Positions 3,101-63,204 of a stretch of DNA of 64,000 nucleotides are shown piece by piece. The translations under genes were made by a program, and so were the position numbers. Below the pieces are notes generated by a model, which was given only the letters and a program-made list of their open reading frames with translations, was not told the DNA's origin and did not search any database. Numbering within the stretch: the stretch's first letter is position 1; each line of letters begins with the position of its first letter. This DNA comes from Balanoglossus misakiensis (lineage: Eukaryota; Animalia; Hemichordata), in contig CM082591.2 of NCBI GenBank assembly GCA_040954595.2, forward strand, positions 8,596,380-8,660,379, written 5' to 3'.

Positions 3101-6100
3101 CTTGATATGTAAACATCTGGCTTTCTCCTTGGTGAAATCATATTGCCATGTGTTTTCCCCAGTCTCGATAGAACGCAGGACTGTACTACAATGGAGCTCT
3201 CTGACATCGGCCCATTGGTAAATTTCTGCTAGGTGTAATAATTCTATAATGTGATCAGTTCTGGCAAGTCTGGTGGCAAGTGGCTCTACATGGTGGATGA
3301 TGTATAGTTCTCCACGTACTAGTGCTGGCATTGATAATGTGGCATATGATTGGTCACCACTGCTAATGTCGGACTTGTGGGCATATTCGTGTGGCCATGG
3401 AACTTGGTAACGCACCTGCTCGCTGGATTTGCGAGCCACACCAGACTTGGGCTGTTTGCTGTTGTGGAGTTTACGGAAGGCTTTGTAGTGCTGCTTACCT
3501 CCCTGCTCGAGCTGTGTGGTGGAGTCTGAATCTGTTCAGGATGACGAAGATGCTGTGGAATCTGTGTCAAACATCCTGGTATGGTGCTTGAATTTATTAA
3601 CTTTGCGACCAAGAGCAGCATCATGGCGAAGAGATGTAATGGTGGGCTTGTACTGAGAATCCTCAATACCTTTTGGCGGTTTTGCCTTCAACTTTTCATT
3701 TCTCGCTAGTTCTCTCTTTAATTCTATTTCAATCTCCAGCTCTTCATTTTCCTTCTTAATCGCCTCAAGCATTTGCTTTTTAGGGCTGATAATTTCTCGA
3801 TTACCTTCGCTGGTGTCTGGCTTAGACTATGGTGTCACACTTGAAGTGCTGGCGTGGGTTTGAGGTGACGATTTGTGGTCCATCTCGAAGGAGTTGTCCT
3901 TGTTTTCTCTACAGAGGTGTCCGGAAGGTCCTTTGTGGTGTTTCAAGTCGATAAGACAGGTTCTGCAAAGTCTTTGCGGCCTAGATGACATCGGATTGCA
4001 AATTGAGATTGCTCAGAAAATGTGACTGGTAACAAAATGGCGTTCTGCAAGGCATCATTGGAGATAAAGTCAAACCGAGGGAGCTGCCACTAGAGGGCTC
4101 TCCTATCATAACAGCAATTAACCAAATTTTCAGCAAGAGACTTGCTATCAAATTTAACACTATTTGTTTCACACGATATGCAAAATATCTCTGACAAATG
4201 AAAGAAATCTTATCCCAGGTCCTTGTTCTATCAGATTATATATCTCACATGCCCAAACATCTGTATATCTATATTACAATTCATTAAATAATTGGCTGTG
4301 TATAACTCTGGTATATTGTAATTTCTGTCCATGTATCATACATGTGCTTTAGGATAACATTTTGGCACATAAATAACGTTTAAGCAATAAAACACCCCCA
4401 GCCATGGTATACCATGAGATTTTGACCAGTTCACGACATATACGCACGAGCGATAGCGAGTGCGTATATGGAGTTGAACTGGTCAAAATCGAGTGGTATA
4501 CCATGGCTGGGGGTGTTTTATTGCTATTATATTATGCCAGTATATTGAAACTTTGCATAAAACATTTTAAAAAGGCATTTTCTTTGACTATGCTATATGA
4601 CTGTGGTATATGGCCAATATATCACGGTCACGTGTCGTGTCTCGACCAATCAAATAGCGTGATTTACACCATCAATATACTGGTATAATATAATTAACGT
4701 TTCAGCACTTGCCTCATATAACACATTTTAGTATGTGAGAGTGTATGATCGATATAACATGCATATAATGTCAAAACGATATTCCTCATTACTCAGGCTT
4801 ATGACATTCGGAGGGGACAGTATGTTCACTGCTACTAGGACAGAAACTTAAATTGTACTTTGTGCAATTTGAAGTGGGACATGTTTTGTGATACGTTTAT
4901 GCTGGTGCAATAAACAGCTTAGCTGAATTTACGTGATGTAGTCAAATAATGCAAGGTTGACTCTATATTCTATATGTTGAAAATTGAAACCAATATTTTT
5001 AATGTCTTTGCAAATAAGCTTGTAAAAAAACTTATTAACAGATACCATGATGCAAGCTTTAGCTTTGTAATATGTGAAACAAAATCATGACCAATTTCAC
5101 AAGCATTGAGTCTGCCTTCATTCGATCATGACCATATACCGGTACATTCAAGATACTACCGGTAGATATGGTTAACTGTTACAGCAGTAGAATAACATCA
5201 CTTTAACCACATTATTATTATAAGCATCATCATCTAACACACCATCTTTTGGATTCCATACTAAATAGGATGAAAACTTTCCTTTTGAATCAAGACCTCT
5301 GTACATAGCAGCTGCAAAGTATGAGAGCGTGGAATTTGTCAATGTCTTAAAAGATATGGGAGATGGCATAGATGGTACAAAAGATGACGTAAGTTTTAAT
5401 TTACCAACTGCAAAAGAAATATGTTGCATGTGTATTTAAGCATGTAGCTGGCAGTGTATAAATAACAATGATATCTCACAGAAATTAACATATTCATCAG
5501 GAAAAAAAAGCTGACAGATATACCCAATGTCATAAATATTTCAAATTGACAAATAGTAATTATATTAAATTGGCAGACTGGTATGACTGTACTCCATGAA
5601 GCTGCAGCCAATAATTTTCCTAACGCAGTGGAGATCCTGATAGACGCTGGGGCAGATAAAGACAAAACAGATAAGGTATATATTTCATTATAAATATGAT
5701 GACTTTAGTATGTATCAACTATTACAAATTCTATAGCATTAGTTGATGTATGGTAATTTTCCCACATAATCATATTTCAAGGTTGGTGACACAGCTCTGC
5801 ACTATGCTGTAAAGAATAGACATCACCAGGTTGTCAAAGTGTTAATAAACAAAGATGTGGACCTGAACTTAGACAATGAGGTAAGTGTTGATCATATTTC
5901 TTTATTGCCTCCCTATGGGTTCTTCTTTTCATTCATACTGCAATTTGTAATGCATGTTTTAATGAAATACGGTTACATGTTGAATAGAAGATAAATTTAA
6001 TATAACTATTTTATTTAAAAACTGGCGACAGGTGAAATTATAGATCAAATATTTTTTTTCTTCTAGAATTGTGAGACAGCACTCTATTGTGCTCTCAAAC

Positions 6101-9100
6101 TTCGGGACATTGAGTCTGCCAAACATTTGCTTAATGCAAATGCCCGTCTGCACAAGGATGCGGTAAGCTAAACTTTAATAGCAACATTTCATTCATATCA
6201 TATTTATTATATATTTTGTCAGTAAACATTATTATCAAAGGGACATTAAGATGGGTCCCTAGGATCTTTTTGCTCGTTGCTATGGGCCTTTATAGGACAC
6301 TACACTCAATTTTGATTGAAACCGTTATGAACGTCCGACAAGGGGCTTGTAACTAGTTAAAAATACACACGATTGTGTGCACACCCCCTGTCTGAGTATG
6401 TTAACGGCAGCTACCGCCCGGCCATAGGCCGCCACGCTAATACGGCAAAGCAGCGGTCAGCGATAGCGTGCGCGTCCTGTAACCACAGTAACTGGATCGA
6501 ACGCTAAAAATCCAATGTTTTGTACACAGAGATTTTGTACCGTTCACGAAAATCCCTAAGGCTTTTTTCACAGGCGACGTAGGCCAGCCAAATTTGACCT
6601 GCTTGTTGAGAACGCACTTCCGCATAGTGTGACGGATCGTTTTTTCAGTTTTCGTCGTGCTAAGAAGCGATACCAGTGGAAGAGTGCGTCCAAAAACACC
6701 CAAAATCGATGACTTTTTCAGGTGTGGTACGGGTATGCTGAAATCGTAGGATACAACGATAATATTCGAAAACAAAATCCGTCACGATCTTCCCTGGTTT
6801 AAGCAACTAATGAATACGTATCAAGTTCGTTTTTGAGGTCACGGAATAAAAAGCCTTAGGCTTTTGAAATTTGACCTAACTAATTTACATATCAATGGCG
6901 TCAGGTGGCGCGCGCTCACAATCGTGCGTATTTTTAACTAGTTACCAGCCCCTTGTTAGACTCTGAAAACGGCTTAGTCCAAATCGGGGTGTAATGTCCT
7001 ATAAAGGCCCATAGCAACGGGCAAAAAGATCCTAGGGACCCATCTTAACTGTAACATTTGGCTTTATTTTCAGTTTGTATGTTCTGTGTACCAAAGGCAA
7101 TTTTTTGTTTTACTCCAAACAGCATGCTAATTTACCCATACATGTAGTACTCTGCTTGTCAACATAGCCATTGCAATTATTGACACATGAATTCGAGTCC
7201 TGACTTGAATGCAAATATTGCTGATACATATAATGGGTTGTTTTAAAGGTCTCATGTCATGCTTTGGAAAGTTTTCATTTTTCCACGTCAAAAGCTCACC
7301 TAGGGTACCTGTCTATGCATTGCCTATTGTGTCGGTTCCGAAAAATGTGCGCGAATGCCGGAATTTGCCCCCTTTTTTCATGCCTGTGATCAGGGAGCCA
7401 CTTCGCACTCGAGCCAGGCGAAGGTATTTGCATATGGACAAACAAGTACACTACGTCCTAGTGTACCATTCTGCTAACAGTAAAGTGTAATTAGCAGTCC
7501 ATGAGTAGTAAAGTCCACAGACAAAGACAAGCTATATAAACAGTGTTCAAAGCAAAGGAAGCCCTTGCCTCACATTACAGGCAGAGGATTTACAAAGGTG
7601 TGAAAGACTATTTGTCCACATCAAGATAAGTCTTCGGCTTAACTTCGAAAAGCCGAAAAAAATCGACTGAGTTGGGTTAGGGGTACACGCCCACCCGCCA
7701 CTTTTACTTGCTTGTTATCTAAGCACAAGGGGCAAAACGCATTGCAAGATAGTAACATACGTTAACTTCAAGACCCAAATAGTGATTTTACGCGTGGTTG
7801 TATAGGGCATGGCATGGGACCTTTAATGTTTAGGAAGTAACACAAAAATACTTCATACTGAAAAGTTTCTGCTAATTATAGTGAACCGACACCTTCCTTG
7901 TAGAGAGGTTCTAATAAAAACTTTGTGAAAAACATGAGTGATTTGTGTCGTTTTTATTCACTTTCACTTATCACGCGTAGCTGCGTAGCGTCAATCTCGA
8001 CATGTGGAAGTAACGTAAGAGACAACGCTCAAGTAGCTGTCTGCTAGTAGGTCAAAGGTCACGCAACGTCTCTAAAGCTGAGCAACCCAGTCGATCAACA
8101 GCCAGCGGATCACCAAGTGACGCGATATGGAGTTGTCAAACGAAGATATCGTCGGATTTTTTTACTAACCCGAATACAGCAGCGATGAGATAGTAGGCGA
8201 CTCAAGTGAAACTGATTCCAATAGTACAGAGGCAAGTGTAGACAGCAAAGACGATCGAGAAGAGGTGCCCATATTGTCTACTGGTGATCGGCTTCGTCTT
8301 TCATCATGCTCATGGTGTAGCTGCGCTGTGGTAAATGCGAAGTTATGTCTACTGTCAAGGAATGCCGGTGTTGCCATGAAATAGATGTCTTGACAGGGCC
8401 GTTAGATAAAGACTTGAACGACATATCACAAAGCCATGCGCTAATTTTTGACATTTAGTCACCCATGTCATAAAAGGGACCCTCGTGATTTCCCAAAAGA
8501 ATAGAAAGTAAACCTTTTGACACTCTCGCGAAAATGTCAACCACACGTGCCTACCATCCTTTTTAGCTCTGCTGTCACTTGTGTCAGCCGAGCTGTAGCA
8601 GTAGGTTGATAAGTGTCCGTCCGGCGTCCGTCCGGCGTCCATCAACTTTTGGTATTTCAATCTTCTTCTTTAAAACAACTTGGCATATTTAGCTGATATT
8701 TGGTTGGAATGTGTATTATGGTGCCCTTAACTGATTTTGTTAATTTGGATTTGATGGGGTCATGAATATGCAAATTAGATCTAAAAGAAGAAGTTTTGGT
8801 AAAAATCTTCTTCTCCATAACTACATGTACAATGGAGCTGAAATTTGGTAGGAATGTGTATTATGGTGTCCCTACCTGATTTTGTTAATTTGGATTTGAT
8901 CGGGTCATGAATATGCAAATTAGATCTAAAAATAAAATTTTGGGTAAAAAATCTTCTCCCTAACTACATGTACGATCGAGCTGATATTTGGTAGGAATGT
9001 GTGTTATGGTGCCCCTACCTGATTTTGTTAATTGGAATTTTGATGGGGTCATGAATATGCAAATTAGAACCTTGGTGCTTCCTTTTGATGTTGTTCTTTA

Positions 9101-12100
9101 GGATTCAATTCTTTCTTTCTTTAGCACAATGAATAAAGCTGAATTTGGATAAATACTTGTGATGTCTATGTTTGGTTTTGTTCAATAGAATACAATGAAT
9201 TTAAACCTAGGGTATTCATATCATTGCCCAGGTTACACTGTTAAAGTCAGCAGAGCTCTTTTGACCGATAGGTCACTTGTTTTTAAAACAAGTACATTGA
9301 TCAACAGCTGTGAAAAGATGCGGTTTCGTTGATCAAAGGGAGGCAGAAACTCTGATTGTCATGTTTCGAGTATATCTGTGGTGCTTCCGGATGGTACAGG
9401 TGGTCGTTTTTGTCTTTGGAAATGGTTTTGTGATGCATTCACAGCTTAGGTACGCAACAAAAACAGTGTTTACTAGTATTTCCGCCACACCTCTTTCTTT
9501 CGATCAGAGTTTTGATTTACAGTGCCAAAATTTGGTTTCGTCATATGGTGATCAAAGGAAATCAAGAGCCCCGACTGTTTCGACAATTTTTGCTGTGTAG
9601 TTTTTTTTTTTTTGCAATATGCTTCACGATATAGGGCCTAGTTGAACACGAACATTTCCGAAGCAAAAAACACATTCCAAACTAATTTCGGAATTTCCAG
9701 ACAATTTTCGGAATTCCTTTTAAATTTATTGGACATGTTTTTATCATTGTTTGCTTTTTAATGTCATTCTCATCCCCCCAACAGCCGCTTTAGGCTTCAT
9801 GTTCAGAAAAAATTCAGCTGAATTTTCCAGGGATCACACAAATCAGTAAAAAAATCAGCTGAATTTTCCAGGGATCACACAAATCAGTAAAAAATTCAGC
9901 TGAATTTTTTGATGAACAAAGTCTTTCAGTAAAAAGTCAGCTGAATTTTTCACTGATTTGTGTGATCCCTGGAAAGTTCAGCTAAATTTTACACTGATCA
10001 CACATTTTTGGGAAGGTCTGGCGCAAAATAAAGGATGACAAAGTCTTTCAGTAAAAAGTCAGCTGAAATTTTCACTGATTTGAGTGATCCCTGGAAAGTT
10101 CAGCTGAATTGTAAAATGATCACACATTTTTGGGAAAATTTTCACCTGATTTTTCATTCACTGACATTATCTGTGAAAAAATCAGGTGAATTTTTCACTG
10201 ATTTGTGTGATCACTGGAAAGTTCAGCTGAATTTTACACTGATCACACATTTTTGGGAAGGTCTGGCGCAAAATTAAGGATGACAAATGTAAATCTAATG
10301 TCACATTTGTAAACCTCTAAGTATTGTACACTCATTCTATTAAGTATATGCAAATAGAATGGATAATTTTTTCGGAATGTGGAATTCCGAAATTAGTTCA
10401 GAGTGTGTTAAAAGTATCATCTCAGCAATTAGCACCAAAATAATATGCCAATGTTTGACAACCATTTTTCAGCTAGATTTGCATTTTGACTGTCCACCGA
10501 AGGGTCGGGAACTTTTATATGTGTTTTTGCCAACTCTGTTTTTGCTCCCACTTGCGAGGCAGCCAGCCATGTCAACTGTCTGTGTACGTGTGCATGCGCA
10601 CGGTGGCGTCTGCTACTGGTGACTAGTCTCTTACGTCACACCGCATATTGAGATCGACGCTACGCTGCTGCACGATAAGTGAAAGTGAATAAAAACGACA
10701 CAAATCACTCATTTTTTTCACAAAGATTTTATTAGAACCTCTCTACAAGGAAGGTGTCGGTTCACTTTAAAGGTACATCAGCTGCAACTGGATAAAAAAA
10801 TTGAAGTTTTAAAAATTCTCGTATATGCTTTTAATTATGTCTATTAAATGATATTTCATGATAATATATCAAGCTCAACACTTATTTATGACAAAATGGC
10901 CAAAAATTAAAGAAAAACGATAATTCCTGCAATTTTAAAAAAAGTGCAATATTGCAATGAAAAAGGAAAAAAATAATGTCTCAGCGTTGTACATTTACTT
11001 CCATGAGCTCAAGTGGATGAGATCATGTTTTGTTTATGAAGTATAACCGGAAATGCAACATTTTGATTGTTTGTTGCATCTTCCCACGGTGGTGACCAGA
11101 TTCGCTTGCTGCAAAGCTTTATTATTTATCTGGTTAAAACTGGCATATGCACTCATATTTAGAGTTTATAATGCTTGTGTATAGTTCACTGCCTTCATCT
11201 GCATGGACTAATGGTAGTACAGTTTGGAACAAAAATTATGAAAATTATCCCAAGAGTTTCAGCTTATGTGCCTTTAGTGGAACTTCAATTGATTAAAGTA
11301 ATTCCTTGATGTTAGCATAATGTTTGAATATTTGTTGAGTTGAGTGAAATTGTTAACTATAAGCTAACTGCATAAGGTGTAAGTGAAATTTGCTGTTCTG
11401 GCAATAATTACACTTTTAGAGGTAAATCATTGTAAAATTTTAATTTCAGCATATGGCTATAGTATTCTAAGAGAAACCTGTGTCACAAAATATAATTTGT
11501 GATTATTGTGTTTATTACAATATAATTTGGGTGGTCAGTCAATGGTATACCGTACATTGATACTTTTAAAATGGTGGAAATTCTATCATGTTGTAGCATG
11601 GAACATCAAATATTGAACAGTTGTTCTGGGCGATCAAAGCATATGAGGAAGAAATGGTAGCAGATCTTTTGAAAGCTGGTGTGAAAATAGATGAACAAGC
11701 ACAGGTAAAGAGCCCTGGAATGTTTTCAGCTCATATTAAGGACCCTTTTACGTCACATTTGAAATGAGTCACATTTGAAATGGGTTACTTTGCTGAAATC
11801 TTGCAAAGCAGTACTCAGAAATCAGTCTTGATTTCATTTAAAAATGTCTTCATTTATGCAATGATTTCAGAAATTTACCAGGCATCAATTTTTGAAACAT
11901 AACCATAATTTTCCAAACAACTTTAAAATTTAATATATTCTCATAATTTCTTTGTCATGAAAATGTTTTTTTTTCCCCATTTAGGATGGTCTTTCTGCTC
12001 TACAACATTATGCAAAGGATGGTGATGTAAAGGCTGTCACTATACTTATTGGTAGACATGCAGATGTCAATAAACATTCAAAGGTAAAAATCTGATTTGT

Positions 12101-15100
12101 ATCTTTTAATGTAAAATTAAATAGATCAAGCCAGGTCATATAAAGAGGATGTACATGTCTTGGGACACATTTTCAGAATAATTACGGTCCTCAAATCTCT
12201 TTGAGTTGTTTGATTAACTAATAGTAAACGAATGTGCAAACCGCACCATTTACTAGTAAACTGTATTGTTTCTAAAAAAGAAAGTGTCAGGTTTGCTAGC
12301 AAAATGATGTTTGGGTATTTATTAAGATGGTTTTGTAATTTTAGTTCTCTATGTTTTTGTTTCAGAATGGGTTTACAGCCCTGTATTATGCAGCAGCACA
12401 GAGTCATGTTGAAGTAGCCAAGATCTTAATTGAGAGTAAAACAAAACAGCTACATTGCAAAAACACGGTGAAGTTTTACTTTGATTCTTTCACTAATTTG
12501 TATTTGTACTTTTGTACAATGTATATGATTTCTCAAAATGGATAAGTATTAGTATTAGTATGTTGACTTTATATGGATCACATTTATCTCACACCAAGTT
12601 AAAATAATATAATGTTTTCAACATAATACCAACAGACAACCATGTTACACTGGGCTGTTGAAAACTATGAATATACTGTGGCAGAGACTCTCATCAAGGC
12701 AGGACAGGATATAAATGAAGTTGTTCAAGGATTGGATAAGGTATGTGGCCATGATAATGATACTAATGATCTGTACAATTTTATAAACAGGCCTGTGTCA
12801 CTACCATCAATATCAACCATGACATAGATGAGAATGGTATATTGTAATTGTGTATTTTCTGTTTAGCAATGAGAAAATTGGCTTGTGTTTGGGATAATTG
12901 TGTTTTGTGATATTATATTTAAAACAAAACAACATTTATATTTCTGTAGGACTCACCTGATGGTGTTACTGTTCTGCATGTAATGGCTCATAATCAGGAC
13001 CCAAAGTATACAGAACTATGCCTCCAGCTTAAAGCAAAAGTCAATGTCTTGGACAAAGTAAGTTTACTGATTCAATAAAGATATCCTGTGATTCAGACAA
13101 TTTTTTTCACATCTGAAATGGTCCTACATTGACCAAGCCACGTAGATGTACAATGTATATGAATTATCGTTATATTTTTTAGTATTGTCTAGACAAGTTA
13201 CATATTGACATTGTAATGATAATTAACACTTTTTAAGCAAAAATTAATGTAAAGGTATATTCAGGGATTGCACAATATTTTCCTGACATCAACCCATAAA
13301 AAGACAATTTTCAATGAAGCACATCATTTATGTTTATCTTGCTATCTTATACTTTATAAGTAACATATGTTAAATGCAAAATAAATCTTCCAACAGGAAG
13401 TGTAATTTTAACATTCTTATTGTGGTTTGTTTTCTCAATAGAAAAACTACACTCCTTTGTACTATGCTGTGCAGAAAAAGAATACAGACACAGTTAGAAT
13501 TCTTCTAAAGGCAAATGCAAACTTTGTTGACGAAAATGGGGTAGGTTTTTTGTGTCTCAGTCTAACAATCAATGTTGTAGAGGATTTGACCTTGGACCTA
13601 TCTATCTGGTAATACATGGTTCAATAACTGAGCCAAGATAATGCAGATAATTTTTTACCATCATGTGACTCTAGTAGATCTGATACTTCCTATAGTAATA
13701 CAGGATTTAATTTAAATTGGTCTATTGTCAGTAACAAATGATGTAATATGTACACTGATGTCACGGATAGACTTCTTGCAGATATTAATATTCCTACTGA
13801 TTCATTATGCTGTAAAGACATTCACTGTAAAGACAAGAATCATGTTGATAGTATTGCTGACTTCTATGGTAATATCATTGATTGTTTACATTGTGCTGGC
13901 ACTCGAATTAGCCACGCCAATGATAGTGGAAAAAGTTGTGTAGTTGCTGGGTGGAATGACCATTTAAAAGAGATCCATGCAATTGCCCGTGACGCATTTA
14001 AATTATGGCGTGAGTCTGGTAAACCCAAGAATGGTCCATTGTATGATTTTAAACATCGTACTCATGCTCGTTTAAAGTATGCATTGTGGGCGTGTCGAAT
14101 TAATGAAGGGCATATGAAAGCTGATGCCATGGCCAAAAACCTCTGTGAAGGTAACCACAAGAAATTTTGGCATTCTGTCAATAACAAAAAGTGTTCTTCC
14201 AGGCCAAACATTGTAGGTTGTTGTACTGGTGAAGCTAATGTTGCTGATATGTGGTGTAAACATTATGAAGTAATCTATAACTCTGTGAACACGACTGATG
14301 ATAAGAAATTTGTCTTGGAAGCTGTTGAGAAATGTACCTTTGATAATAGTGTTACTGTTTTACCCGGTGACGTGTGTGATGTCATTTCTAAATTACAGAC
14401 TGGAAAAGCTGCTGGCTCAGACTTTCTTTCAGTGGAGCATTTTATGTATGCCAGTACTAAGATTTCTATCTTACTTAGTATGTGTTTTACAGCAATGTTT
14501 GTACATGGTTTTTGCCCGAGTAGACTTTCTGATACTGTCTTAGTTCCCATAGTAAAGGACAAAAACAACAATGTTAATGACAAAAGTAATTACCGTCCAA
14601 TTGCACTCTCTACAGTTGCTTCAAAGCTCATTGAGTTAATTTTACTTAGACATATTGATTGTTTTCTTGAGACGTCACATTATCAGTTTGGTTTCAAATC
14701 TGACCATTCCACTGATATGTGCGTATTTGTTCTTAAAGAAGTAATCAATTTCTATAGAAAGCATGGCAGTAATGTAATTATCACCTTCATGGATGCTTCA
14801 AAACCATTCGACAGAGTGAACCATTGGGTTTTATTCAAAAAACTAATAGATCGCAAAGTTCCAGCTTATTTTGTTAGATTTCTTTTGAGTTGGTATCGTA
14901 CTGAGCAGATTTTCATTGGCTGGGGTTCATGTACTTCTGCTGGATTCACTGTCTCTAATGGTGTCAAACAAGGTGGAATCTTGTCACCTAAGTTTTTTAA
15001 TATTTATGTTGATCAGTTGAGTATGATGTTGTCAAACTCCAAAACAGGCTGTAATATTGGAGGATATTTTATCAATCATTTAATGTATGCCGATGATAGA

Positions 15101-18100
15101 TGTCTTATTAGTCCTTCGGTCAAGGGGACTCAGAAGTTGGTTGATATCTGTAGCGACTATGGTAATACTCATGATATTTTATTTAATGACAAAAAGACTA
15201 ACTGTATGTGTATCAAATCGGATTCCTCTATGAATCGTCGCATTCCTACTGTTTATCTTAATGGAGTTAAACTAGCATTTGTAACAAAGAAAAAGCATCT
15301 GGGTTTCATCCTCAACGATCATCTCCATGATGATGATGATATTGAGCGACAGATGCGATGTTTTTATGTGTCAGCTAACATGCTTAAGAGAATTTTTTTC
15401 AGATGTACTTTTGACATTAAGAGTATTCTCTTCAAAACATATTGTTACCAAATGTATGGAAGCCCAATGTGGGTAAAATTCACTGTCAGCTCAATGAGGA
15501 AATTGAAAGTTGCATATAACAACGCTGCTCGTATCCTATTGGGATATGACAGACGAAGTAGTGTGAGCTCTATGTTTGTGACGAACAGAATTGATACATT
15601 CGATGCCCTGCATAGAAGGCAAATTTTTAGTCTCAAGCAACGACTTTTGAACTGCCAAAATGTCATTGTGCGGCAAGTGCATGATACACTGTATTTTAAT
15701 TCTGAAACTTTGAGCTTTTGGAATAAGCTTCATTTTGTCATTTAGATATATATGTAATTTAATTTTTTTTTCCCTTTCAACTAAATAGTCCTACTGTAAT
15801 ATGGACCATGAGTCCAAAATAAAGTTTATAATAATAATAATATAATAATAATAATAATTGCTATGTTGATGCAACATAAACTGTTACAGCAGTTGTATAA
15901 CATATCAATTTAACCACATTATTATTATCAGCATCATCAACTAACATACCATCTTTTGGATTCCATACTTAATAGGATGAAAACTTTACTTTTGAATCAA
16001 GACCTCTGTACATAGCAGCTGCAAAGTATGAGAGCGTGGAATTTGTCAATGTCTTAAAAGATATGGGAGATGGCATAGATGGTACAAAAGATGACGTAAG
16101 TTTTAATTTACCAACTGCATAAGAAATATGTTGCATGTGTATTTAAGCATGTAGCTGGCAGTGTATAAATAACAATGATATCTCACAGAAATTTACGTAT
16201 TCATCAGGAAAAAAAGCTGACAGATATACGTACCCAATGTCGTAAATATTTTTAATTGACAAATAGTAATTATATTAAATTTGCAGACTGGTATGACTGT
16301 ACTCCATGAAGCTGCAGCCAATAATTTTCCTAACGCAGTGGATATCCTGATAGACGCTGGGGCAGATAAAGACAAAACAGATAAGGTATATATTTCATTA
16401 TAAATATGATGACTTTAGTATGTATCAACTATTACAAATTCTATAGCATTAGTTGATGTATGGTAATTTTCCCACATAATCATATTTCAAGGTTGGTGAC
16501 ACAGCTCTGCACTATGCTGTAAAGAATAGACATCACCAGGTTGTCAAAGTGTTAATAAACAAAGATGTGGACCTGAACTTAGACAATGAGGTAAGTGTTG
16601 ATCATATTTCTTTATTACCACCCTATGGGTTCTTCTTTATATTCATACTGCAATTTGTAATGCATGTGTTAATGAAATACGGTTATATGTTGAATAGAAG
16701 ATAAATTTATTATAGCAATTTCATTTAAAAACTAGCGACAGGTGAAATTATAGATCAAATATTTCTTTACTTCTAGAATGGTGAGACACCACTCTATTGT
16801 GCTCTCAAACTTCGGGACATTGAGTCTGCCAAACATTTGCTTAATGCAAATGCCCGTCTGCACAAGGATGTGGTAAGCTAAATTTTAATAGCAACATTTC
16901 ATTCATATCATATTTATTATATATTTTGTCAGTAAACATTATTATGAAAGGGACATTAACTGTAACATTTGACTTTATTTTCAGTATTTATGTTCTGTGT
17001 ACCAAATGCAATTTCTTGTTCTAGTCCGAACAGCATGCTAATATACCCATAGTACTCTGCTTGTCAACATATCCTGTATGTGTGTAACGACCATTGTAAT
17101 TATTGACTCTTTAATTCTAGTCTGGACTTGAATGCAAATATTGCACAATAACATTGCTGATTATATGCATAGTATGGATTGTGTTGATAAGCTTAATGCC
17201 AGGCATTTCATCATGCTTCAGGGAGTTGAACGTTAAACTGCTGTATAATCACACACAACAAAAATACTTAAGACCGAAAAGTTAGAGCTAGAGCTTTAAT
17301 TGATAAAAATAATTCCTTTATGTTGGCATATTGTTTGAATATTTGTTGAGTTTAGTGAAATTGTTAACTAACTGCATAAAGTGTAGTGAAATTTGGTAAA
17401 GTTGCTGTTCTGGCATTGATAACACACTTAGAGGTAAATCATTGTAACATTTTAATTCCAGGATATGGCTATAGTATTTAAAGAGAAACCTGTACCACAA
17501 AATATAATTTCTGATTATTGTGTTTACTATAGCAATACAATATAATTTGGGTCAATTAATGACATACATTAATGCTTTTAAAATAAATATTTTATGGTGG
17601 AAATTCTATCATGTTGTAGCATGGAACATCAAATATTGAACAGTTGTTCTGGGCGATCAAAACATATGAGGAAGAAATGGTAGAAGATCTTTTGAAAGCT
17701 GGTGTGAAAATAGATGAACAAGCACAGGTAAAGAGCCCTGGAATGTTTTCAGCTCATATTAAGGACCCTTTCACGTCACATTTGAAATGAGTCACATTTG
17801 AAATGGGTTACTTTGCTGAAATCTTGCAAAGCAGTACTCAGAAATCAGTCTTGATTTCATTTAAAAATGTCTTCATTTATGCAATGATTTCAGAAATTTA
17901 CCAGGCATCCATTTTTGAAACATAACCATAATTTTCCAAACAACTTTAAAATTTAAAATATTCTCATAATTTCTTTGTCATGAAAATGTTTTTTTTTCCC
18001 CATTCAGGATGGTCTTTCAGCTCTACAACATTATGCAAAGGATGGTGATGAAAAGGCTGTCGCTATACTTATTGGTAGACATGCAGATGTCAATAAACAT

Positions 18101-45100: not shown

Positions 45101-48100
45101 TATTCACTCAATGGGACCACCGGGTCCTTGACGCGATTTTTTCATATTATCGTCTGATTTCAGACAACAAAGCTGCATTGGGCTATTGACAGTTATGAAC
45201 AAAAAGTTGCTGAAACTCTTGTGAAAGCTGGGTTGGACATCAATGAAGATGTTCAAGGATTGGATGAGGTTTGTATTTTGAAATGAAAATTTGCCTTGGA
45301 AAATGGCTTCATATTTTGCAGACAAGAGATGGAAACCTGATGAAGTGTCAAGCATTGCCAAAGTTTTTTGTTTTTGTTTTTTGTTAATTACACTGTTTGC
45401 AAAGATAAGAAAGTGAATTACAACTGTTACAACAGACTGTGGCATGTATCAACAAGATGCATTAAGTGTACTTAACAGTATCTCAATCAACACTAAATCC
45501 CATTAAATCATCAAACATTGTACAGTGAATAACAATGCCTGATAAGGAGGACTCCAAATTTTTTCTTCAGCAGTATCGGCCCCCTTATAAATGACAAATT
45601 ATGTTATACATTTAATTTTCAGTTAATGAGTGTTTTTAACACAATGTCAGTTACTAATACCTAATACAGATACAGTGTACAGAGCTTCGTTTTATATTCT
45701 TCATGTATAAAACACAGTATGGTCCATTTTCATCAGTGATGTTGTAAAAAACCAGGGTTTCGCCATATAATGGTTCGCATTTATATTTAGGGTATGGTGG
45801 AAGGATCAAAAGCCATCCATTTAATGGCAAGAAAAGAAGAACCAAAATTTGTTCAGTTGTGTTTGAAGCTGAAAGCAGATGTTAATCCATTGGATAATGT
45901 AAGTTACCTGGTAAATACTAATGAATAAGAGGAATGGAAAGTGGTGTATAAATTTCATTTGTATCTTAGGCTGTGACTGGATTATAAGCCTCCACTAATT
46001 TATCTAAGAATATGAGGTTATCAGTTTCAACCAAGAGGTACGTGATATCAGGCCAACTCTTGGTTTGGCCATGTTGGTGTGAGTGTGGTTGTGAGCTGCA
46101 TCACATGCAGTTCACAACCAAATGTCAAAAATACACAAATCAAACAAAAGACTGCAATGTCTACCTCACAGAAAAGTCTGCATAATCAACCCTGACAAGG
46201 GCACAGTACTAATATTACCATCCGGTCCATGCTTATTTCAATATGTTGCCAAGAGAATGACAGCCAAAGACTTATCTACAAAAAATGTGTAAGAAGATTT
46301 TCATGTATACAGTAACCAATTGATCGTCTGATCACTGCAAATTGCTGGAAGTGATTATGTAAGTGATGTACAAGACCTCAAACTACTGTTAAAACTGAGC
46401 AAGATGACCGTTAAAAACTGAAATAAAAACGCAATACATAACACCATAATCTTGATGACAGGGTTTTAAGGATCATAGATGAGTTTACAATGCATGTGAC
46501 TATTGGGTCTGATGGATCATTTAATCATCATGAAATTTGATGCATTCCACAGAACTATATACAAAATTCACAATTTTGAAAATAGTGTGCCAGTGTGTTT
46601 CATATTTCTTCAAAAAGAGCTCATCATGTCACAACACCAATCTCTTTATTCAAGGGAAAGAAGACCCCACTGTATTATGCAGTAAAGTGTAAGAATAAAG
46701 AAACTGTGAAAGTGCTGTTGTCAAGAGGTGCAAACTTTGTACGGGAAATCCAGGTAGGTGTTAAAAACATAAGTTAAATATATGAGTGAAAAGATCTTAA
46801 TTGACACATTTCTTGCAAAAAAAACTAATCAACCTTAACTATTGTGGTTTTATTACTCAAACAAGTTTTGAATTACTTTACAGTCTTTGAGGGAGCTGCA
46901 ATTATTTATGGCCTGGGGGTCGGAGGAATCATAGGGGGTCACTCAAAAACGGAAACTGGAAGGTGGGGGTTCTCAAAAAGTCGAGACGAAGAGGGGTCAC
47001 CCATTTTTTGGAAATAAATTAAGTGAAAGTATCTCAAAAGAAGAATTAAGTCAGGTACAGTTCGATTCCAACAGTGCTCCTCAAAAGGACATAATTGTCT
47101 GTACCGTCATGCAAGAGTACCCAAAACACAGTTAATTAAATTTCTAAAGGTCATGCTTTCAGATCGGGTTTCACATTACATAAACAGTTCAACTCTATGT
47201 AAAATCAACTTGGATGTAGTAACATATGAGATATGGATGTACCGGTATGGTGTAACTTTCCAAATAAGTGTTTTTTATTTTCTTTCTATGATCATTTTTT
47301 TTCTTCAAAAAACTTAATTATTGGAGCCTTTACAAGACATGCAGTGAAGTGAGCTGCTATTTTCCAATATGCCACATTTTGATTGGTCAATTTATAATTA
47401 GTTTTGGGTGATGTGCATGACCCGCATTTGCTGATGTTTTAATATGTAATTGTTCCGGGTTGGAGGGAGGGGGTGTTGGTCACTGAAATTTCTGTTAGAA
47501 ATGATGGGGGGTACTCTGATTCTGCATGCTTGGCAGAGGTGGGGGGGGGGGAGGGTTACTGCAAATTTTGGAGTTTCAAGTTAGATTCTTCCTATCCCGC
47601 CCCAAGGCAATAAATAATGACAGCTCCCTAAGCGTTTTTTTTCTCTTTCTAACAGAATGAACCTCGCATATCGCAATCATTCACCTATTCACACAGACCT
47701 ATATTCATAGCAGCTGCCATGTATGAAAATCTAAGCTTTGTTAAAGTACTCCAAGATGTTGGTATTGATTTAAATACAGCTGATGATGTAAGTAAATTTA
47801 AATTTTTCATGTTCTTGGAGAACATTAAACACAAAATGGTTTAGTTCTATAATGTAGCAATAATTTAATTAACATTCTATTTTTTGAAAACTCATCTCAG
47901 CCATTTGCCAGGTTCAAAATTGTGACATATGGAGAGGGCTGGCAGGAAACATTAACACTGATAGAACTGTAATGCTATAATCTTTCATGAAATATTCTTG
48001 TCATTACCTCCTATGAAAAACAAGTACATAATAATAAAATGATAATTAATTCTAAAAAGATTGTAATCTTCTTGACCTTCAATGTCTGTTTTGTTAAAAT

Positions 48101-51100
48101 TTAACACAAAAAATTGCCCGATTTATGTATACTTTTGGTTGACCCTGTATTACATGTTATTAGGAACTGTAACAGTTAAACAGGCCAGGTGCTTGTGACA
48201 TATTGTTACGATCTGTATAAAGGTCAAATATGATTTTAAAGTTCAATTAATCCAGAGCTCGGGAATGTCATAGTATTTGATTTTATGTATTTGAAGTAGA
48301 TAGGGAGAGCTGGTGTTTAACTGACTGCTCTGTTTGTCAATCATCATCGAACTGACTTTGTTATATAACGCTTATGTAAATTGGTACGTAGATAGTTGAA
48401 TTGATGCCCAATGAAATTATAACACATTGTATTTGTGATATTTTACATGATTAACCACGCCTTGAGAAAAGTAATTATAAGAGAACTTTGTTTCCAAAGT
48501 TGTAAGACAATAAATCTAACGGGAGATGGGAGTACTGGGCATATTTGATGTACTGGTCAGGAGTAATTCTCGACAATAAATGAACGTGAATCAGATACGT
48601 GTCTCCGTGAATCACTGTTCTCGTCAGAGCCCGTTATCTCATCGCTATGAAGTCCCCAATGCATGAACAACAATAATATTCAAGTGGTAATAATATCATA
48701 TTTAACCTTGTACATCATTTTTGTATTATTTGTGAGTTCAGCATATAATAATGAATGCATTGCATATAGCATTAAATGGATCACAATCTTCAACTGCAGT
48801 CTCATTCATTTCTAGAATGATCTGACCGTTCTGCAAGAAGCAGCAAAGGAGGGATTTGATAAAGCTGTCACTGTTTTACTAGAAGCAGGTGTAGAAGTAA
48901 ACAAAACAGATCAGGTGAGTGTCTTATCCATGACATTTCTGTTGCAGATTTATATATATGTGGTATTATTACATAATGTCATAAAGAGGGACTGGTGGTG
49001 GCGGCCATGTATGTACAGAAATGTTCAATACGTGTCACCTATGTTCTTCGTGGTTTAAGTAATTAAAAGTTAAGATTTTTGCCAAATTTTATTTTTTACA
49101 TAAATCGGTAGGTTTAATACTGACATACATTCTGACAAAGGCATCTTGGCAGAAATGGTACATACTAACCACAAAATAGCACTTTTCTGAATGAGTCCGC
49201 AGCTTAAGAAATAGGTGTGTCAACAATGCAAATGGCCGTTTTTCTCAGTTTGCATTTTGGCTGCTACTGACAACTTCAGAAGAATTCAGCTTCGCTCTGC
49301 GTTGGATGAATTTGCTCAAATTTTAACAGGGGATTGTGTATGACCTATCCAACAATATGAACATTTTTTTAGTCGATAAACTGGCCATAGTGGGAATAAA
49401 CTTTGATTCAATACAACTCATCGTGAATTTGATCAAATTTTCTAAAAATCTAACTTGCAAACGCTGTTACTCCTCAATGGAAGCAGAGAATGCAAAATTT
49501 TCGTTTTTTTTGCACGTGCACTCTAGTTTCAAATAACATGTTAAGATGCATGATGCAAATATGGTAAACCTTTTTACCTAATTCAAATTGAATGACATAA
49601 TATCAAAAAGTGGGTTTTTAACCCCAAAATGCCACCATTTCCAGGGGTCAATAAAATATGCAACTCAAACAAAAGTTGAAAAAAACTCAACTTTTAGAAT
49701 ATGTATGTTTTATAGGGGTTCTAACATTGGCTTTGATGAGAAATAGGCCTCTGATAAAGTCTTGGCGGTTTCATGCAATGTTTTCTGTGGTGGGTATGCG
49801 TGGCCTTGATCTACAGACCTATTTGTATGTAAGCACACTTGTGTCAAAATCTTTTGCTATCTTTTTACTGTTTACTGTCTTTCCCTATCTTACATAAAGT
49901 TCATGGTAATGTGGGTGTCACTAAACAAACATAGCAATACTGAGATGCAATGAGACATCAAAAAGTAATACATTTATGTCAGAGGTTCCCCAAACCTGCA
50001 AAATTGTAGTCTCAGTGACCCAGCTACTTATTCAACCCAAAGCATGACCATTAAGCTGTAACATACCCTTTAAACATGGAGATTTAATGTTGGCAATTCA
50101 AATGTCCATTTTGCATACAGAGATGCTTTGTTTGCAATCCTCAATATAATAGGTGTTTGATTATGTTTCATAAAGAAGGGAATATTAATACAAGCTGGTT
50201 TAATGAACGTGAATCGAAATTAATCATCTTGTGTATCCTATTTTGTAAACAGAAACAACAGACCGCTTTGCATCATGCTGTCAATGGATCCAAATCTAAA
50301 GTTATCAATGCTCTGTTGAGTTGGGATAGCACTGACAAAGATGCTACAGAAAAGGTAAAATAAGGCCTTTTGGTTTTACCATCTGTCTACTTGATATTAG
50401 TAGTTCTTAACACAACAGATGCATGTATGTATTTATGTCTGACGTATGTGAGTAGGTATTACTATTCACCTGACAAACTGAACAATATTTATGAGCTTGG
50501 CTTTTATAATAAAAACTATTACCGTAAATAAACATATCATATCTAAAGTATGCATAATAGCTGTAATGTGAAAATGGTTACAAGTAAAGAACCATATGTT
50601 AAAAATTATATTGTTATTCTGATTGATTTGCGTGCAGGTACCATAGATATTTTTTTCTTCTGATTTAAGTCATAAGAGATATGGCATCAAAATTACTTTT
50701 ACCTTTCCAAATTTCGCATTTTCAAAAGTAACTAGAACTGCATGTTTTCAATATGACTTTGTAACAGCACTATACCTTTCGTCTTCTTTTTATACTGGTG
50801 GTTCAGTGTCTCTATTCAGTTCATCTGGTTGGTTTACTTCACAGAATGCCAAAACACCCTTGTATGTAGCGACAGAGAATGATGATGTCGACTGTGTTAA
50901 GGCTCTTCTGGAGAAAGATTGCCGTATCCATGCCAATGTAACACGGACTACCTATGGAACGGTAAGCAGATCAAACACTTATCATATTATAAGAAATATT
51001 GCTGTTATTTATCAAACACAAAAGCAGAAGTCCAACCTAGCCAAATGAATTTGTAGTGTGAACCATTTTCAAAATAGACTAGCTCATTTTACCAACCAAA

Positions 51101-54100
51101 CAAATAGGTCCAGATTAAATTGACCAATGGATACAAAAATGGTCGGGCAAATTTATTGAACTTAATCTTGATTTACACTTTCTGAGTAGAGAACCATAAA
51201 TTTATGTTACTATGTAAAATTACAGGATGCAAATTGCATACCATATTGCTCTAACCTCAGCATGAGATTTTCTGACAGGTGGACCGTCATTTATAAAAAA
51301 TAAATTATATAGCTCGTCAATCCAAACACCAGGAATAATCTTTAATGGCATTAATTACACGTAATTAATTGTGTAAAATAAAGCAGATATCTGTGTGAAA
51401 TTGATTAAACAAATTTTAGGTTAGTTTCCATCTTATGATGTGCCTCAGCTGCCTTTGTTGAATATTAATTTCAGTTTTCTTGAGGATATGATGGGGCGGT
51501 GTTGGAGATTCAAAATCCAAAACGACCAATACTGATACAAGTGTTTTGTTGAATATTAATTTCAGTTTTCTTTGGATATGATGGGATGGTGTTGGAGATT
51601 CAAAATCCAAAACGACCAATACTGATACAAGTGTTTTGTTGAATATTAATTTCAGTTTTCTTGAGGATATGATGGGGCGGTGTTGGAGATTCAAAATCCA
51701 AAACGACCAATACTGATACAAGTGTTTTGTTGAATATTAATTTCAGTTTTCTTGAGGATATGATGGGATGGTGTTGGAGATTCAAAATCCAAAACGACCA
51801 ATACTGATACAAGTGTTTTGTTGAATATTAATTTCAGTTTTCTTGAGGATATGATGGGACGGTGTTGGAGATTCAAAATCCAAAACGACCAATACTGATA
51901 CAAGTGTTTTGTTGAATATTAATTTCAGTTTTCTTTGGATATGATGGGATGGTGTTGGAGATTCAAAATCCAAAACGACCAATACTGATACAAGTGTTTT
52001 GTTGAATATTAATTTCAGTTTTCTTGAGGATATGATGGGATGGTGTTGGAGATTCAAAATCCAAAACGACCAATACTGATACAAGTGTTTTGTTGAATAT
52101 TAATTTCAGTTTTCTTGAGGATATGATGGGACGGTGTTGGAGATTCAAAATCCAAAACGACCAATACTGATACAAGTGTTTTGTTGAATATTAATTTCAG
52201 TTTTCTTTGGATATGATGGGATGGTGTTGGAGATTCAAAATCCAAAACGACCAATACTGATACAAGTGTTTTGTTGAATATTAATTTCAGTTTTCTTGAG
52301 GATATGATGGGATGGTGTTGGAGATTCAAAATCCAAAACGACCAATACTGATACAAGTATTTTAAGTACTAAATGTAGCTTCCTTCTTTATTTTATTTTT
52401 ATGTATTATTTAAATCAGGATTTATAAAGTAGTCATCCCATAGAACAGCTAAAAAAATGTATACAGGAATACGGCAAGACAAACAGACACAAATAACAAT
52501 TATAATAAAAACAAAATAAAAGAGCAAAGATAAAAAGTCAGTCAAAAAGCAGTAAAACAGACAATCCGCTCTACTTGCACCAAAAAGCATTATAATATAT
52601 ACATCGACTTTCTGTAGAGCTGTTGAAATTTTGACTGGACAAAGACATCAGAGTTCACTAATTTGTTCAAAATGCTATTGCCACTGTTAATTCTGACATA
52701 GAATTTGTAAAGTAATTTATGCCTCAAAGAGTCAAAGGAAGGGACATTGTTAGATACACACATCTCACTAGCACTGCAATCTCATGGCAGGCACAATAGA
52801 ATACGAAATGCATTGTTGTAAGCCACTCTGAGACTGTTCATGTTTTTCGTGCTGTACTGCCACCATAAATGTGAACAGGACATATTAGTACAACAGGTGT
52901 GAAATCAACTGACCTTCACATGATTATTACCATTTGCAAATTGTCGAGTCAATATATTTGCCTGTGCATAGGATTTACACATCCGTCTCTTAATGTCAGC
53001 ATCACCTGTCATTGTTTCTGTAAAAACATAGCCAAGATATTTATGATGTGATACAACATTCAACATTTTACCGCCCAAGAACACTGGTGGTATCTTATCT
53101 ATAGTCAGATTCGATTTGCCTGGTATGAAATACATGCATTCTGATTTCTTGGGGTGAAATACAATATCATGTTCAAGACCATACTTTTCACATATTGAAA
53201 CTAGTTTACGCAAGGCACTGATGGGCGGAGCCATCAAAGCAATATCATCTGCATACATCAAATGCTTAATAATAGATCCACTGATGGTACAACCCTTTCC
53301 ACATTAATTTAAACGTACACTCAAATTATCCATATAAACATTAAATAAGTACGGAGATAAAATGCCACCCAGTCAGACACCATTTTTGACTGAAAATAAT
53401 GATAAAAAGCATTCTCCCCACTTAATACAAAAAAGTTGTGTCCAGTACCAAACCATTATAATCCTTATCACATACATAGCTTCGCATATACCATAGTATG
53501 ACGTCAGACGTAGGTAAATTTGCACCAAGCGTTATTGTAATACCCATCCGTCTGACGTCACCAAACGGAACTATTTTAAACTTGTAAACAAAGTCCTCTT
53601 AGGGCGACAAAATTCAGTGCAATTGTTGGTTTTATTTCGATATTAAAAAATAAGCAAAGATAAATAAAATGTTTCGTATGTGTAAATATGGACGATCGAC
53701 GATTAGTTTTACCTGTGTACATTTTTATCGCACCAACCGGCACCAAAACTGTCGCGAGGTCGTCAGTGCTGAGCCAAAGTCGTCGCGTTGTCGAACGAGC
53801 GACAGGTACAAAACTGAGTATTCGCAAAAATTTTGATGCGACGATTAGAGCAAAACGGTCTAGTCATAAAGCAAGAAAGGTTTCCTGCTCCAGTGAAACC
53901 TTGACGGACGATGAAATCCAGCTGACGCACGACAGACGGGTCCTCGCCAAAACCAGAATCGTCCAGGTCGTGACCTCAGTCACCAGACAGATAGACCGCA
54001 TAACAATTTTGCACAAAATAGTTCCAAATTTTATCGCAACCACAAAGAGATTTATTTGAAAATCAAAATTAGCGGATCTATGTATGTGATAAACATATAA

Positions 54101-57100
54101 TTCCCCCGTATTCCTCACTCGTGTACCTGCGTCGCGAACTCGTGATTCCCCGTATAGCTGTATCCCTCCTCGCCTGCGGCTCGGAGGGATACGGCCGCTA
54201 TACGGGGAATCACTCGTCCGCGACGCAGGCACACTCGTTCGAAATACGGGGGAATTATATATAAGAATTACATACCAGGGCACAGATCTATCAATAAGCT
54301 TCTTAAATAAAACCCACTGGTTTACCCGATCAAACGCTTTGGTAGCATCCAAAAAACATGCAAAAACTGGACTGTTAAAATGACTGTAGTACGAGATTAT
54401 TTCTTTCATTGCATAGATACAAAAGTCAGTTGAATGACCACGTTTGAATCCGAACTGCATGTCTGTTGTATACAGGAAATCTTTGCAACGCTCTAGAATG
54501 ATCAACTCTAACATCTTTGATGTAACCGTAGCAATAGCAATAGGCCTGTAGTTATCTTTACTAGAGACATCCCTGGTTTTGAATTTGGAGTGTTGACTCT
54601 CAGTTAGAGTAATTGCATCTTTCATGTTCAGCACCTCATGTCGAAGGGAACGCATTTCCTTAAGCATCGATGATATATCAATGTGAGACATGTCAATCGG
54701 TGGTAACTTATTCAGGTCTTTTGCAACAAAGCATGGTATATTATCAGGATCTGTTTGGTGTACCAAGGCCAGGATGTCATGAATATTATTCAGCATCTTA
54801 TGTTGACCTTTTCGTTGTATGTACCGTCCATTCTCATCTGTGCATACCATATCAAATATTGTACGCTTGGCCTTTTCAATACCTTGATCATCGGAGTGTT
54901 CAGCACAAAGTTTAGCAATGACCTTGCCGGGTAGCACATCGACTTTGTTTGTAATGAAGCAAAGAATCTCATTGATAATTACACCAGTCGATGATAACTT
55001 GTTTTCCGGGCAGTCAGCGACGTCAGGTTTACGCAAGGTAGAAGCAGGATTGGAGCCACGTTCAAATTGTTGTCTTTTACAGGGTGAGCATAGATCTAGA
55101 TCACCCTGCCATAACTTTACCGCGTTAGAAGTTTGTTTACAGTCGTTGCAATTTAGCATAATGAACAGCTATGCGTAAATTACGCAGTTCTGATACACAC
55201 CTGGAGTCTGCAAATGCGACAGCGTGTTGACCTCACCAGTCAACTTCCAGAGCGTATTTTTGTAGATTTTCCGTGTAAATATGACTTCCCGTCTCTAAAA
55301 AACACCAAATACGTGTCGCCCAGGGCTTCATGCAGCGTCCACAATGACAACCACTCTTCTGGGAGAAGAATTCCAGGAAAAAATTTAGTCGATGTCGCGG
55401 ACCCGTCAACACGTGCATGCGGTTTCTGAAGATGTCTCGTATTTAAATGAAAGATATGGGAAATTAAATACATTGGAGCCTCCCTATAACGAACATTATA
55501 TGTAGATGTACATATCCCAATTTTAAAACCTGAAATCAGAAAATGTATTTACCACCAAAACAATACTAAAATGCTGTTTGGCATCAGTTTAGATGTGGCA
55601 ATATTGATCAAAACCGTCAATTGTGTAATTATCAATTTTTTCCCAACGACAATGAAATAATATGTAATGTTTCCTTTTATAAATTTTAATGGTATACAGT
55701 CACCTCCAATTTACATACGCCCATATATGGCTGAAATGGCATATTTGAGCATTCTAAAGAACACATGGTGGCGCTCTTTTTTTGCGTGGCTAGATCTCAA
55801 CTTGCCATGGTAACTACAGCTAATGTTCCATAGTTGACCATATACTATTAAGGCATCTGTCCTGCCAGAACAATTGATTTTTACCATTAATCATATTTCT
55901 GTTTGATTAATACTATAAGGCGTACACCAGTAATTTGACCCAGCTGAAGTGGGTTGTTGAAAATGAGAAAGACTCAATGGTGCGAACATTGCAAAGAGCT
56001 GGAGTAAACATAGATTCATATGATGAAGTAAGTTAATCTTTATATTTACTGCTAGTACCGGTATACAGAAATTACACTGCATAGCTACTTTCAAATTAAA
56101 AAGTCTTTCAACGATTTCAAGTATATAATATAAGTTGAATCAATATATACTGTAAAACACTTTATTTTTGCGAGTTGAAATTTTTTGCAATATCCAGAGA
56201 GGCCACTGTTTCGTGAGTATTAATTTTCGTGTTCTCTTATTTCATTCACTGCATCGTTATCTTCAAAAAATATTTACGCAACTTTTTATTTTCATGAAAA
56301 TTTATTGCTCGTGAAAATAAAGTATTTTACAGTAGATGTTATTTTAAGTATTTTGAATACTAATTAAAATGAGTATAAAAATATATCTTTTGTTATTCTA
56401 TATCATTTAATGATTACTGGTTTACATGGCCTATTCTGCTCATGTAAATTGCCATCCTCTTTTCTAACTTTAACATTATGAAGATAGATCTATTCCTACT
56501 GTGTTTTTGACATTAGAATTTACTTTATATTTTTAAACTTGGATTTTTGTTCGTGACATGTCAAGTATGATCACTAATGGGACATAAGAATTTCCACGTT
56601 TATGTAAGTTGATAAACAGCAATTCACATATCCATAAATAATTTATCTTCAAGGACCATTTCACACTTCTACATCACTTTGCAAGAAATGGAAATGTAGC
56701 TTGTGTAAAGATCCTGCTTGAGAATGGTGCCACAATCGATACATATTGTAAGGTGGGCATTTTGTTTGTTTGTCTATATTTATATATAAAATATATATAA
56801 ATTTATATGAAAGCTACCATCACAGTAGTGTATGGGTTTTATAAAGTACAGTGTGCATTTTGTGTGCATTTTGTGTATGTTTTTCCATGCATAAAGTGCT
56901 CAACATTATTGTTTTGCAGGATAAGTACACTCCTGTCTTTTATGCTGCCCAAAATGAACACGTTGATGTCACCAGCCTTCTGATTACATCTGGTGCAAGA
57001 TATCTACATTCTGACAACAAGGTACTTTACCATTTTCATTGAACATGTGAATACCATGCAAGTTGTATCAATTTGGCCTGTTATTTAATTCCTGTAAAAT

Positions 57101-62298: not shown

Positions 62299-62721
62299 GT
62301 ATGTATGATAAACTCTTCAGTATACTTATCTTATATGTGACTGTTGAACCAATTCTAAACTTACTGTAAATAATACCCATCCCTATTTGAAAAAAAATTA
62401 TATTAGTGAAGGAATAATAATTAAAGGTCTACAAATGTGACATCAGTTGTATAGTTGTAACCCTATAATTTGCCACCAACCTTTTCAAATGTATTGGATA
62501 TTAGTTGTTACAGATCTGAGAGTAGAATGTTACTATTGACAAAACCTGGTAATTTTAATATTGGACATTTGAGTATATTTTACCAACCTATTGTTATAAG
62601 GACACCACACAAACTATAGAAATATTTGAGAACCTTCAAATCTACAAGCTGATTACTTTCATTAATCCCCAAACACTTACACAAACTTCTTATCTAGGTG
62701 ATAGTTGTAGAAAAATATTAA

Positions 62722-63204
62722 AGGTACATGAGCTGCAACTGGATAAAAAAATGCAGTTTTGAATAATCTTATATATGCTTTTAATTGTCTATTAAATGAT
62801 ATTTCATGATAATATATCAAGCTCAACACTTATATATGACAAAATGGCCAAAAATTAGAGAATTACAAAATCCTGCAATTTTTAAAAAGTGCAATGAAAA
62901 AATATAATGATATAATGTCTCAGCGGTGTACATTTACTTCCATGAGCTCAAGTGGATGAGATCATGTTTTGTTTATGAAGTTTCATAACCGGAAACATTG
63001 TTTCTTGCATTTTCCCACGGTGGCGGCCATATTCGCTTGCGGCAAAGCTTTATTATTTATCTGGTTAAAACTTGCATATGCACTCATATTTAGGGTTTAT
63101 AATGCTTGTGTATAATTCACTGCCTTTATCTGCATGGACTAATGGTAGTACAGTTAGGAACTAAAATTATGATAACTATCCCAAAAGTTGCAGCTTATGT
63201 GCCT
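62722..63204. mobile_element. Kolobok-type MITE, complete (TTAA TSD)
   Basis: ttaa|AGGTACATGAGCTGCAAC ... GTTGCAGCTTATGTGCCT|ttaa. Confidence 0.85.

Follow-up and report, generated by a model that had tools for sequence, protein, structure and literature searches.

We analysed a 64,000-nucleotide stretch of the hemichordate Balanoglossus misakiensis genome (GenBank assembly GCA_040954595.2, contig CM082591.2, positions 8,596,380 to 8,660,379 of the forward strand; hereafter the window), which carries eight mobile-element insertions belonging to six families, A to F. The window is AT-rich, repeat-dense eukaryotic DNA with fragments of long interspersed elements (LINEs) and ankyrin exons, and it includes a large tandem duplication (25030-45098 versus 45106-63036, 94-99% identical, ankyrin exons included) that is the source of the empty sites used below. 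An earlier note on this DNA had proposed that the insertions share one end architecture. We lean towards the reading that all six families are gene-less CryptonA elements whose movement in trans depends on a DUF3504 tyrosine recombinase (YR) acting on a single folded DNA strand.

In element orientation, every insertion began with TTAT, the start of a 5' segment designated X, and continued through a body to the reverse complement of X, which abutted a hairpin of 128-194 nt; the element ended 2-3 nt past the hairpin (8/8). Elements A1, A2, B2 and E lie on the minus strand. A1 (4380-4693, 314 bp) has X at 4671-4693, the complement of X at 4527-4548 and the hairpin at 4380-4526. A2 (31646-31959), which is 97.8% identical to A1 and sits inside a 91-bp tandem repeat, has the complement at 31793-31814 and the hairpin at 31646-31792. 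On the plus strand, B1 (19887-21085, 1199 bp) begins with X at 19887-19899, its internal complement ends at 20934 and the hairpin spans 20935-21085; B2 (42411-43599, 90% identical to B1) has its hairpin at 42411-42561 and the complement at 42562-42574. The complement of X ends at 22744 in C (22424-22879, plus strand, 456 bp; hairpin 22745-22879), at 37583 in D (36966-37711, plus strand, 746 bp; hairpin 37584-37711) and at 54092 in F (53465-54264, plus strand, 800 bp, inside a LINE fragment; hairpin 54093-54264). In E (41822-42276, 455 bp) the complement lies at 42016-42036 and the hairpin at 41822-42015, with an end uncertain by 1-4 nt. B (19921-19972) and F (~53499-53560) also contain a second, small 5'-proximal hairpin, bounded by a TGACGT common to both.

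The pairing of the ends was specific to each family. In representatives of the six families, the first 14 nt and the reverse-complemented 14 nt immediately preceding the hairpin agreed at 13-14 of 14 positions; matches as good as these occurred at only two to four of 128,000 window positions, about as many as the elements themselves contribute through their ends and internal copies. As X fitted its own internal complement at 13-14 of 14 positions in 6/6 families, versus 6-11 of 14 across families, the pairing follows family. The hairpins contained 50-78 pairs among 61-92 aligned columns. Terminal inversion was limited to TT/AA, and not in every family; there were no terminal inverted repeats (TIRs). 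A generic scan of the window for the plan recovered seven of the eight elements (E was missed at that stringency) together with offset duplicates, and no new family. The window elements encode nothing that we could recognise, with none of 45 element frames matching Pfam over the cut-off, and Rfam gave no matches.

These results bear out most of what the earlier note had described: the eight insertions are where it placed them, apart from the end of D, and the shared plan and the 5' TTAT hold in all eight. Its TT..AA-type ends stand at the start but not at the 3' side, where the final letters are AA in A, B and F only, and TA in C, AT in D and CA(A) in E. The internal tract had been likened to the complement of a circle junction; its reverse complement does match the 3'-5' head-to-tail junction, minus the last 2 nt (3 nt in E if the end is 41822). 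The description of the families as sequence-unrelated was too strong, as B and F have two blocks of 21-23 nt in common (E values 0.003-0.014) and one tip motif, described below, occurs in all six.

Paralogous empty sites showed exact insertion without target-site duplication (TSD), as the note had stated, for A2 (in the 91-bp tandem repeat), B2 (61537|61538) and F (33331|33332). The three targets were unrelated in sequence, the bases following the three insertions were A, T and G, and no direct repeats of 4-6 bp were present at both termini. Family C has a diverged empty paralog at ~17571-17576 that is consistent with no TSD within 1-2 nt. For D (empty paralog near 57889) and E, junctions earlier called ambiguous by 1-5 nt differed from the empty paralogs by 1-2 nt, the paralogs being otherwise 94-99% identical. 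As A2, B2, D, E and F each occur in one copy of the duplication only, they were inserted after it.

The hairpins were strongly biased between the two strands. Across the six families, the strand opposite X had 16 tandem G·A pairs and its partner strand 0 (binomial p 3e-5), and for single G·T wobbles the counts were 15 and 3 (p 0.008). All six loops began with G and ended with A on the strand opposite X. On that strand each tip comprised a short stem and a G..A loop framed by CGA and GAG; four were triloops, A had GATA and C had a decayed form. The tip of E (41911-41927, plus strand) serves as an example, reading CGA, short stem, G-N-A loop, stem and GAG, with equivalents at 4447-4460 (plus), 31713-31726 (plus) and 54169-54183 (minus), all on the strand opposite X. 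Predicted folding was better for this strand in 8/8 hairpins, by 2.5-6.4 kcal/mol, and when five hairpins from outside the window were added the tandem G·A count became 27 versus 0. One compensatory pair was observed in E (41893/41945), where the window copy has T-A and more than 99% of the aligned contig depth has G-C. According to the available text of PMC10085684, two CGAG blocks facing each other in a DNA hairpin pair through sheared G·A, as determined by nuclear magnetic resonance, and GNA triloops are stable DNA loops. When three elements were folded as circles, the internal tract was predicted to pair with both ends and to leave about 2 nt unpaired. This strand-specific G·A design, which the earlier note had missed, is the main mechanistic clue, and the strand-biased hairpins are what is new here.

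The same design was found around Crypton recombinase genes in another animal. A genome scan returned 13 loci, 11 of them from G001, a 12-Mb species-representative bacterial assembly that contains many contaminating, intron-bearing animal contigs with animal transposons (L139-L149, L173-L199); protein relatives point to a coral-like source for this animal DNA. PF12012 matched at seven places in G001 and in none of 14 control genomes, and among 88 genomes of the same phylum it was found in G001 only. L173 carries a 2.26-kb element with, in order, X, promoter-like CCAAT boxes, a DUF3504/YR frame, the complement of X (25/26, or 96% over 26 nt) and a hairpin with four tandem G·A pairs. Its recombinase frame is broken by an insertion of ~225 bp, with the catalytic-type residues intact (R90, K123, H221, R224, H247 and Y256); relatives of this type of protein carry PF12012 and PF00589 and include cnidarian 'KIAA1958-like' and 'ZMYM2-like' records. 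L175 has the layout of L173 with a weaker X (25/31), and a small element begins right at the 3' end of this Crypton. L201 and L202 are deletion derivatives with both ends as in L173, and L201 retains the start of the frame. L176 contains a 310-bp element with the full plan whose first 150 nt and start codons are as in the L174 Crypton, which has a GT-AG intron. The coding elements with this plan contained a YR frame only, and the G·A strand was antisense to the recombinase gene.

Families A to F are linked to these Cryptons by 10-13 nt of end similarity and by the shared tips. The start of L202 matched that of F at 13 of 14 positions, and 278 kb of sequence contained a single occurrence of the first 10 nt of B, which lay 587 nt upstream of a match to the Crypton N-terminus. 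Because the same design surrounds Crypton recombinase genes in another animal, the families are likely Crypton derivatives, in agreement with the note's mention of similar sequences catalogued as non-autonomous Cryptons. Its wider picture of non-autonomous, TSD-less, high-copy elements mobilised in trans by a YR is likewise supported, with the tie to a recombinase in this organism being indirect.

Contigs of three runs from one sample cover the stretch, and their depth, a rough sign of abundance rather than a copy number, was compared between elements and flanks in one run (X1). Bins in E reached 44,826-148,876 versus 112-282 in most flank bins, with a sharp rise at the element borders; bins in D reached 632-15,686 versus 71-183, and those in the body of B 2,077-18,086. 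The hairpin end of B (42411-42561), at 57,335, was several-fold deeper than the body, which suggests an end common to other families. Varied flanks at fixed ends appeared as low-agreement (0.5-0.62) loose ends at 42410, 42276-42277, 36966 and 37710-37711; as other copies of D stop at 37710-37711, its end was moved there from the 37715 first proposed. E and B2 lie 134 bp apart, and a contig of a second run (X2) links the 5' end of B to the hairpin end of E with six letters between. These two cases and the small element next to the Crypton of L175 suggest that such elements stack on each other's ends.

The design also occurred elsewhere. Scanning metagenomes for the B/F junction and tip yielded at least 120 loci, mostly bacterial among the matches listed, and in at least nine loci the tip was flanked by 35 or more nested pairs. 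Eight of these had 36-41% G+C content, resembling the intron-bearing animal loci, and no recombinase was found by motif or Pfam in the animal-like metagenome loci tested. Within 358 kb of G001-type loci we counted 35 tip hairpins, with exact tips of A and F type and a near-exact E-type tip among them. Pattern scans of viral contigs gave 0, 2 and 15 matches; the two inspected had no long hairpin, and no relative of the Crypton protein was found in viral contigs. Tandem long hairpins with the same tip were observed in bacterial contigs L014 (~2017-2280) and L067, adjoining what is presumably a tRNA gene, and these probably represent the same fold motif in prokaryotic palindromic repeats.

If the families are Cryptons, movement through a single strand is reasonably probable. 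The G·A strand, antisense to the recombinase gene, would become single, for example during replication, and fold into the hairpin and the X stem, so that the two element ends would come to lie next to each other on the internal tract, leaving about 2 nt unpaired. Cutting and joining of that one strand by the recombinase would then release a closed single-stranded dumbbell; the other strand would be kept at excision, so that the move would be replicative. Integration would consist of an exchange between the junction strand and one strand of the target, after which the junction would be resolved by replication, as at the attC sites of integrons; no duplication would arise, and junction noise would not exceed 1-2 nt. 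The modelled geometry looks like the junction that remains once a closed single-stranded dumbbell has exchanged one strand with a duplex target. In the available text of PMC2727003, integron integrases use one folded strand whose unpaired bases determine the strand chosen, with one exchange resolved by replication; we infer each enzymatic step of an integron-type route for Cryptons by analogy with them. Such a model would explain why no TSD is present, why targets are loosely chosen, why junctions differ slightly and how families could diverge while keeping a common design.

Several observations weigh against this reading. Tyrosine recombinases normally need some crossover homology, and the targets share none. 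Common ancestry of the tips would make the G·A counts non-independent; with the five outside hairpins added, the G·T bias was not significant (21 versus 11, p 0.11), and the L175 hairpin was predicted to fold equally on both strands. End-to-start joints were found in none of nine contig joints for D, and for E and B in none of the joints listed (15 of 39), a weak negative in both cases as contigs drop rare forms. No autonomous partner for A to F was found in this organism in a search of the 64-kb window, nor was any Crypton protein remnant present there. A candidate remnant in F scored 2.7 bits, a value reached by 6 of 300 null sets for one profile and by 43-208 of 300 for the other three, and was rejected as not significant; the F frame had no homologs. 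ATG-started peptides in C and E that resemble the Crypton N-terminal RF motif were likewise set aside, having no profile support. Eleven G001 contigs carry Cryptons, of which two showed the full plan, one a hairpin with a degenerate X, two were cut by the contig edge and six had no hairpin; we read the last six as probable old fragments. In the automated survey of tip hairpins, only 12 of the 35 had an X no more than 3 kb away that agreed at 15 or more of 20 positions, and L175 did not pass.

The Crypton link in G001 lends equal support to a rival in which the non-autonomous CryptonA elements travel as ordinary double-stranded circles; X and the base of the hairpin would then be recombinase binding sites, and the hairpin would have another role, for example in cruciform extrusion, termination or circle replication. 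Excision as a circle is the standing Crypton proposal in the available text of PMC3212892. We nevertheless regard this as unlikely, as it leaves unexplained mismatches that are symmetric across the arms and stabilise one strand only (16 versus 0), and an internal tract that equals the junction minus 2 nt.

Two explanations outside the Cryptons have also been considered. In a DIRS-like retro-mobilisation, a borrowed reverse transcriptase (RT) would produce from an RNA copy a first-strand cDNA, the G·A strand, whose ends would be rebuilt and joined on the internal tract before a YR integrated the circle. The folded strand is indeed the antisense strand, a DIRS/Ngaro-like remnant seems to lie in the window at ~2030-4100, and the internal tract is arranged like the internal complementary region of DIRS elements (available text of PMC8969392 and PMC5633606). 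However, the elements have neither an RT nor long inverted repeats, and the plan accompanies RT-less Crypton genes, one with an intron. The hairpin was found in none of five other animal YR contigs, four of which we take from their motifs to be of DIRS/Ngaro type. The remnant itself has no such hairpin and was for that reason rejected as a partner, and we consider this route improbable. A Helitron2/Helentron or other HUH rolling-circle family, with X and its complement as asymmetric repeats and the hairpin as terminator, appears very improbable. Helitron2 does have a 5' T, a short (8-15 bp) asymmetric inverted repeat right before the 3' hairpin and single-strand chemistry, as described in the available text of PMC3627910. 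Its repeat is 20-30 bp from the end, whereas the distance is 128-194 nt in the window elements, whose far longer hairpin reaches the terminus; the base following the three exact insertions is not always T, and the coding elements with the same plan carry a YR rather than RepHel. A search of G001 for the Helitron domain PF14214 gave no match, and as the controls were equally blank this is uninformative.

Other features of the window include the remnant at ~2030-4100 (minus strand), an internally deleted retroelement with a gag-like frame (3044-3535), a C-terminal YR part and no RT; we take it to be DIRS/Ngaro-like from its motifs, and Pfam was blank for the gag-like frame. An intact 667-aa LINE reverse transcriptase frame lies at 13742-15745 (plus strand). 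An array of ~122-bp units with internal inverted symmetry (9800-10290) has ends as in the repeats at 44478-44551 and 62416-62489, and a three-copy repeat of ~1.05 kb (5174-6249, 15879-16959 and 21300-22351; 95-96% identity) was not picked by the plan scan.

Animal Cryptons have been described without recognisable ends, so the design provides a boundary-calling rule for them and a means of placing many high-copy invertebrate repeats that are still unclassified, and the predicted fold offers a defined DNA substrate for Crypton biochemistry. If true, the single-strand model would add a structure-guided, TSD-free integrase in eukaryotes and would tell what the ancestor of the domesticated DUF3504 genes (KCTD1, KIAA1958, ZMYM and QRICH1) recognised. 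In the literature searched, with subscription journals, Repbase and Dfam outside its scope, we found no account of this end design or of a single-strand Crypton model, and no paper showing how animal Cryptons move. The six families may well be catalogued in Repbase or Dfam.

Compared with known systems, the window elements are like CryptonA in having no TSD or TIR and in forming abundant short non-autonomous families, and the G001 elements with the same plan encode PF12012 and PF00589. They differ in the internal junction copy and the G·A hairpin, which are absent from the descriptions in the available text of PMC3212892 and PMC13465315. Those texts report no terminal repeats for animal Cryptons (Kojima and Jurka 2011, PMC3212892) and none detectable in Glomhopper (PMC13465315), and supplement 1 of the former gives the terminal repeats of all 12 animal families as 'n.d.'. 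Fungal and oomycete Cryptons have terminal direct repeats of 4-6 bp that the window elements lack; this does not disqualify CryptonA, because animal Cryptons are likewise reported without them. DIRS-1 likewise has an internal tract that is the complement of its two termini, arranged in the same order, and further points in common are the absence of a TSD, a YR and a proposed circle. The likeness to DIRS elements drawn in the earlier note holds for this internal complement only; the window elements have no RT, gag or long inverted repeats, their tract directly borders a long hairpin at the terminus whose loop has 3-4 nt, and their partner appears to be an RT-less, intron-bearing DNA transposon. 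The integron attC site offers a working analogy, with a folded strand bearing unpaired bases, weak sequence conservation, a YR and resolution by replication. The window elements differ in being eukaryotic, with no attI platform or R and L boxes seen, and their site, as folded by computation, consists of two stems joined on an internal splint. Tentatively, and by a finely balanced judgement that falls just on the doubtful side, animal CryptonA may constitute a eukaryotic integron-like system in which a single-stranded dumbbell, made of an internal junction copy and a G·A-bearing hairpin, is read by its structure and joined to nearly any target by exchange of one strand that replication resolves, the recombinase thereby serving many families of otherwise diverged sequence.

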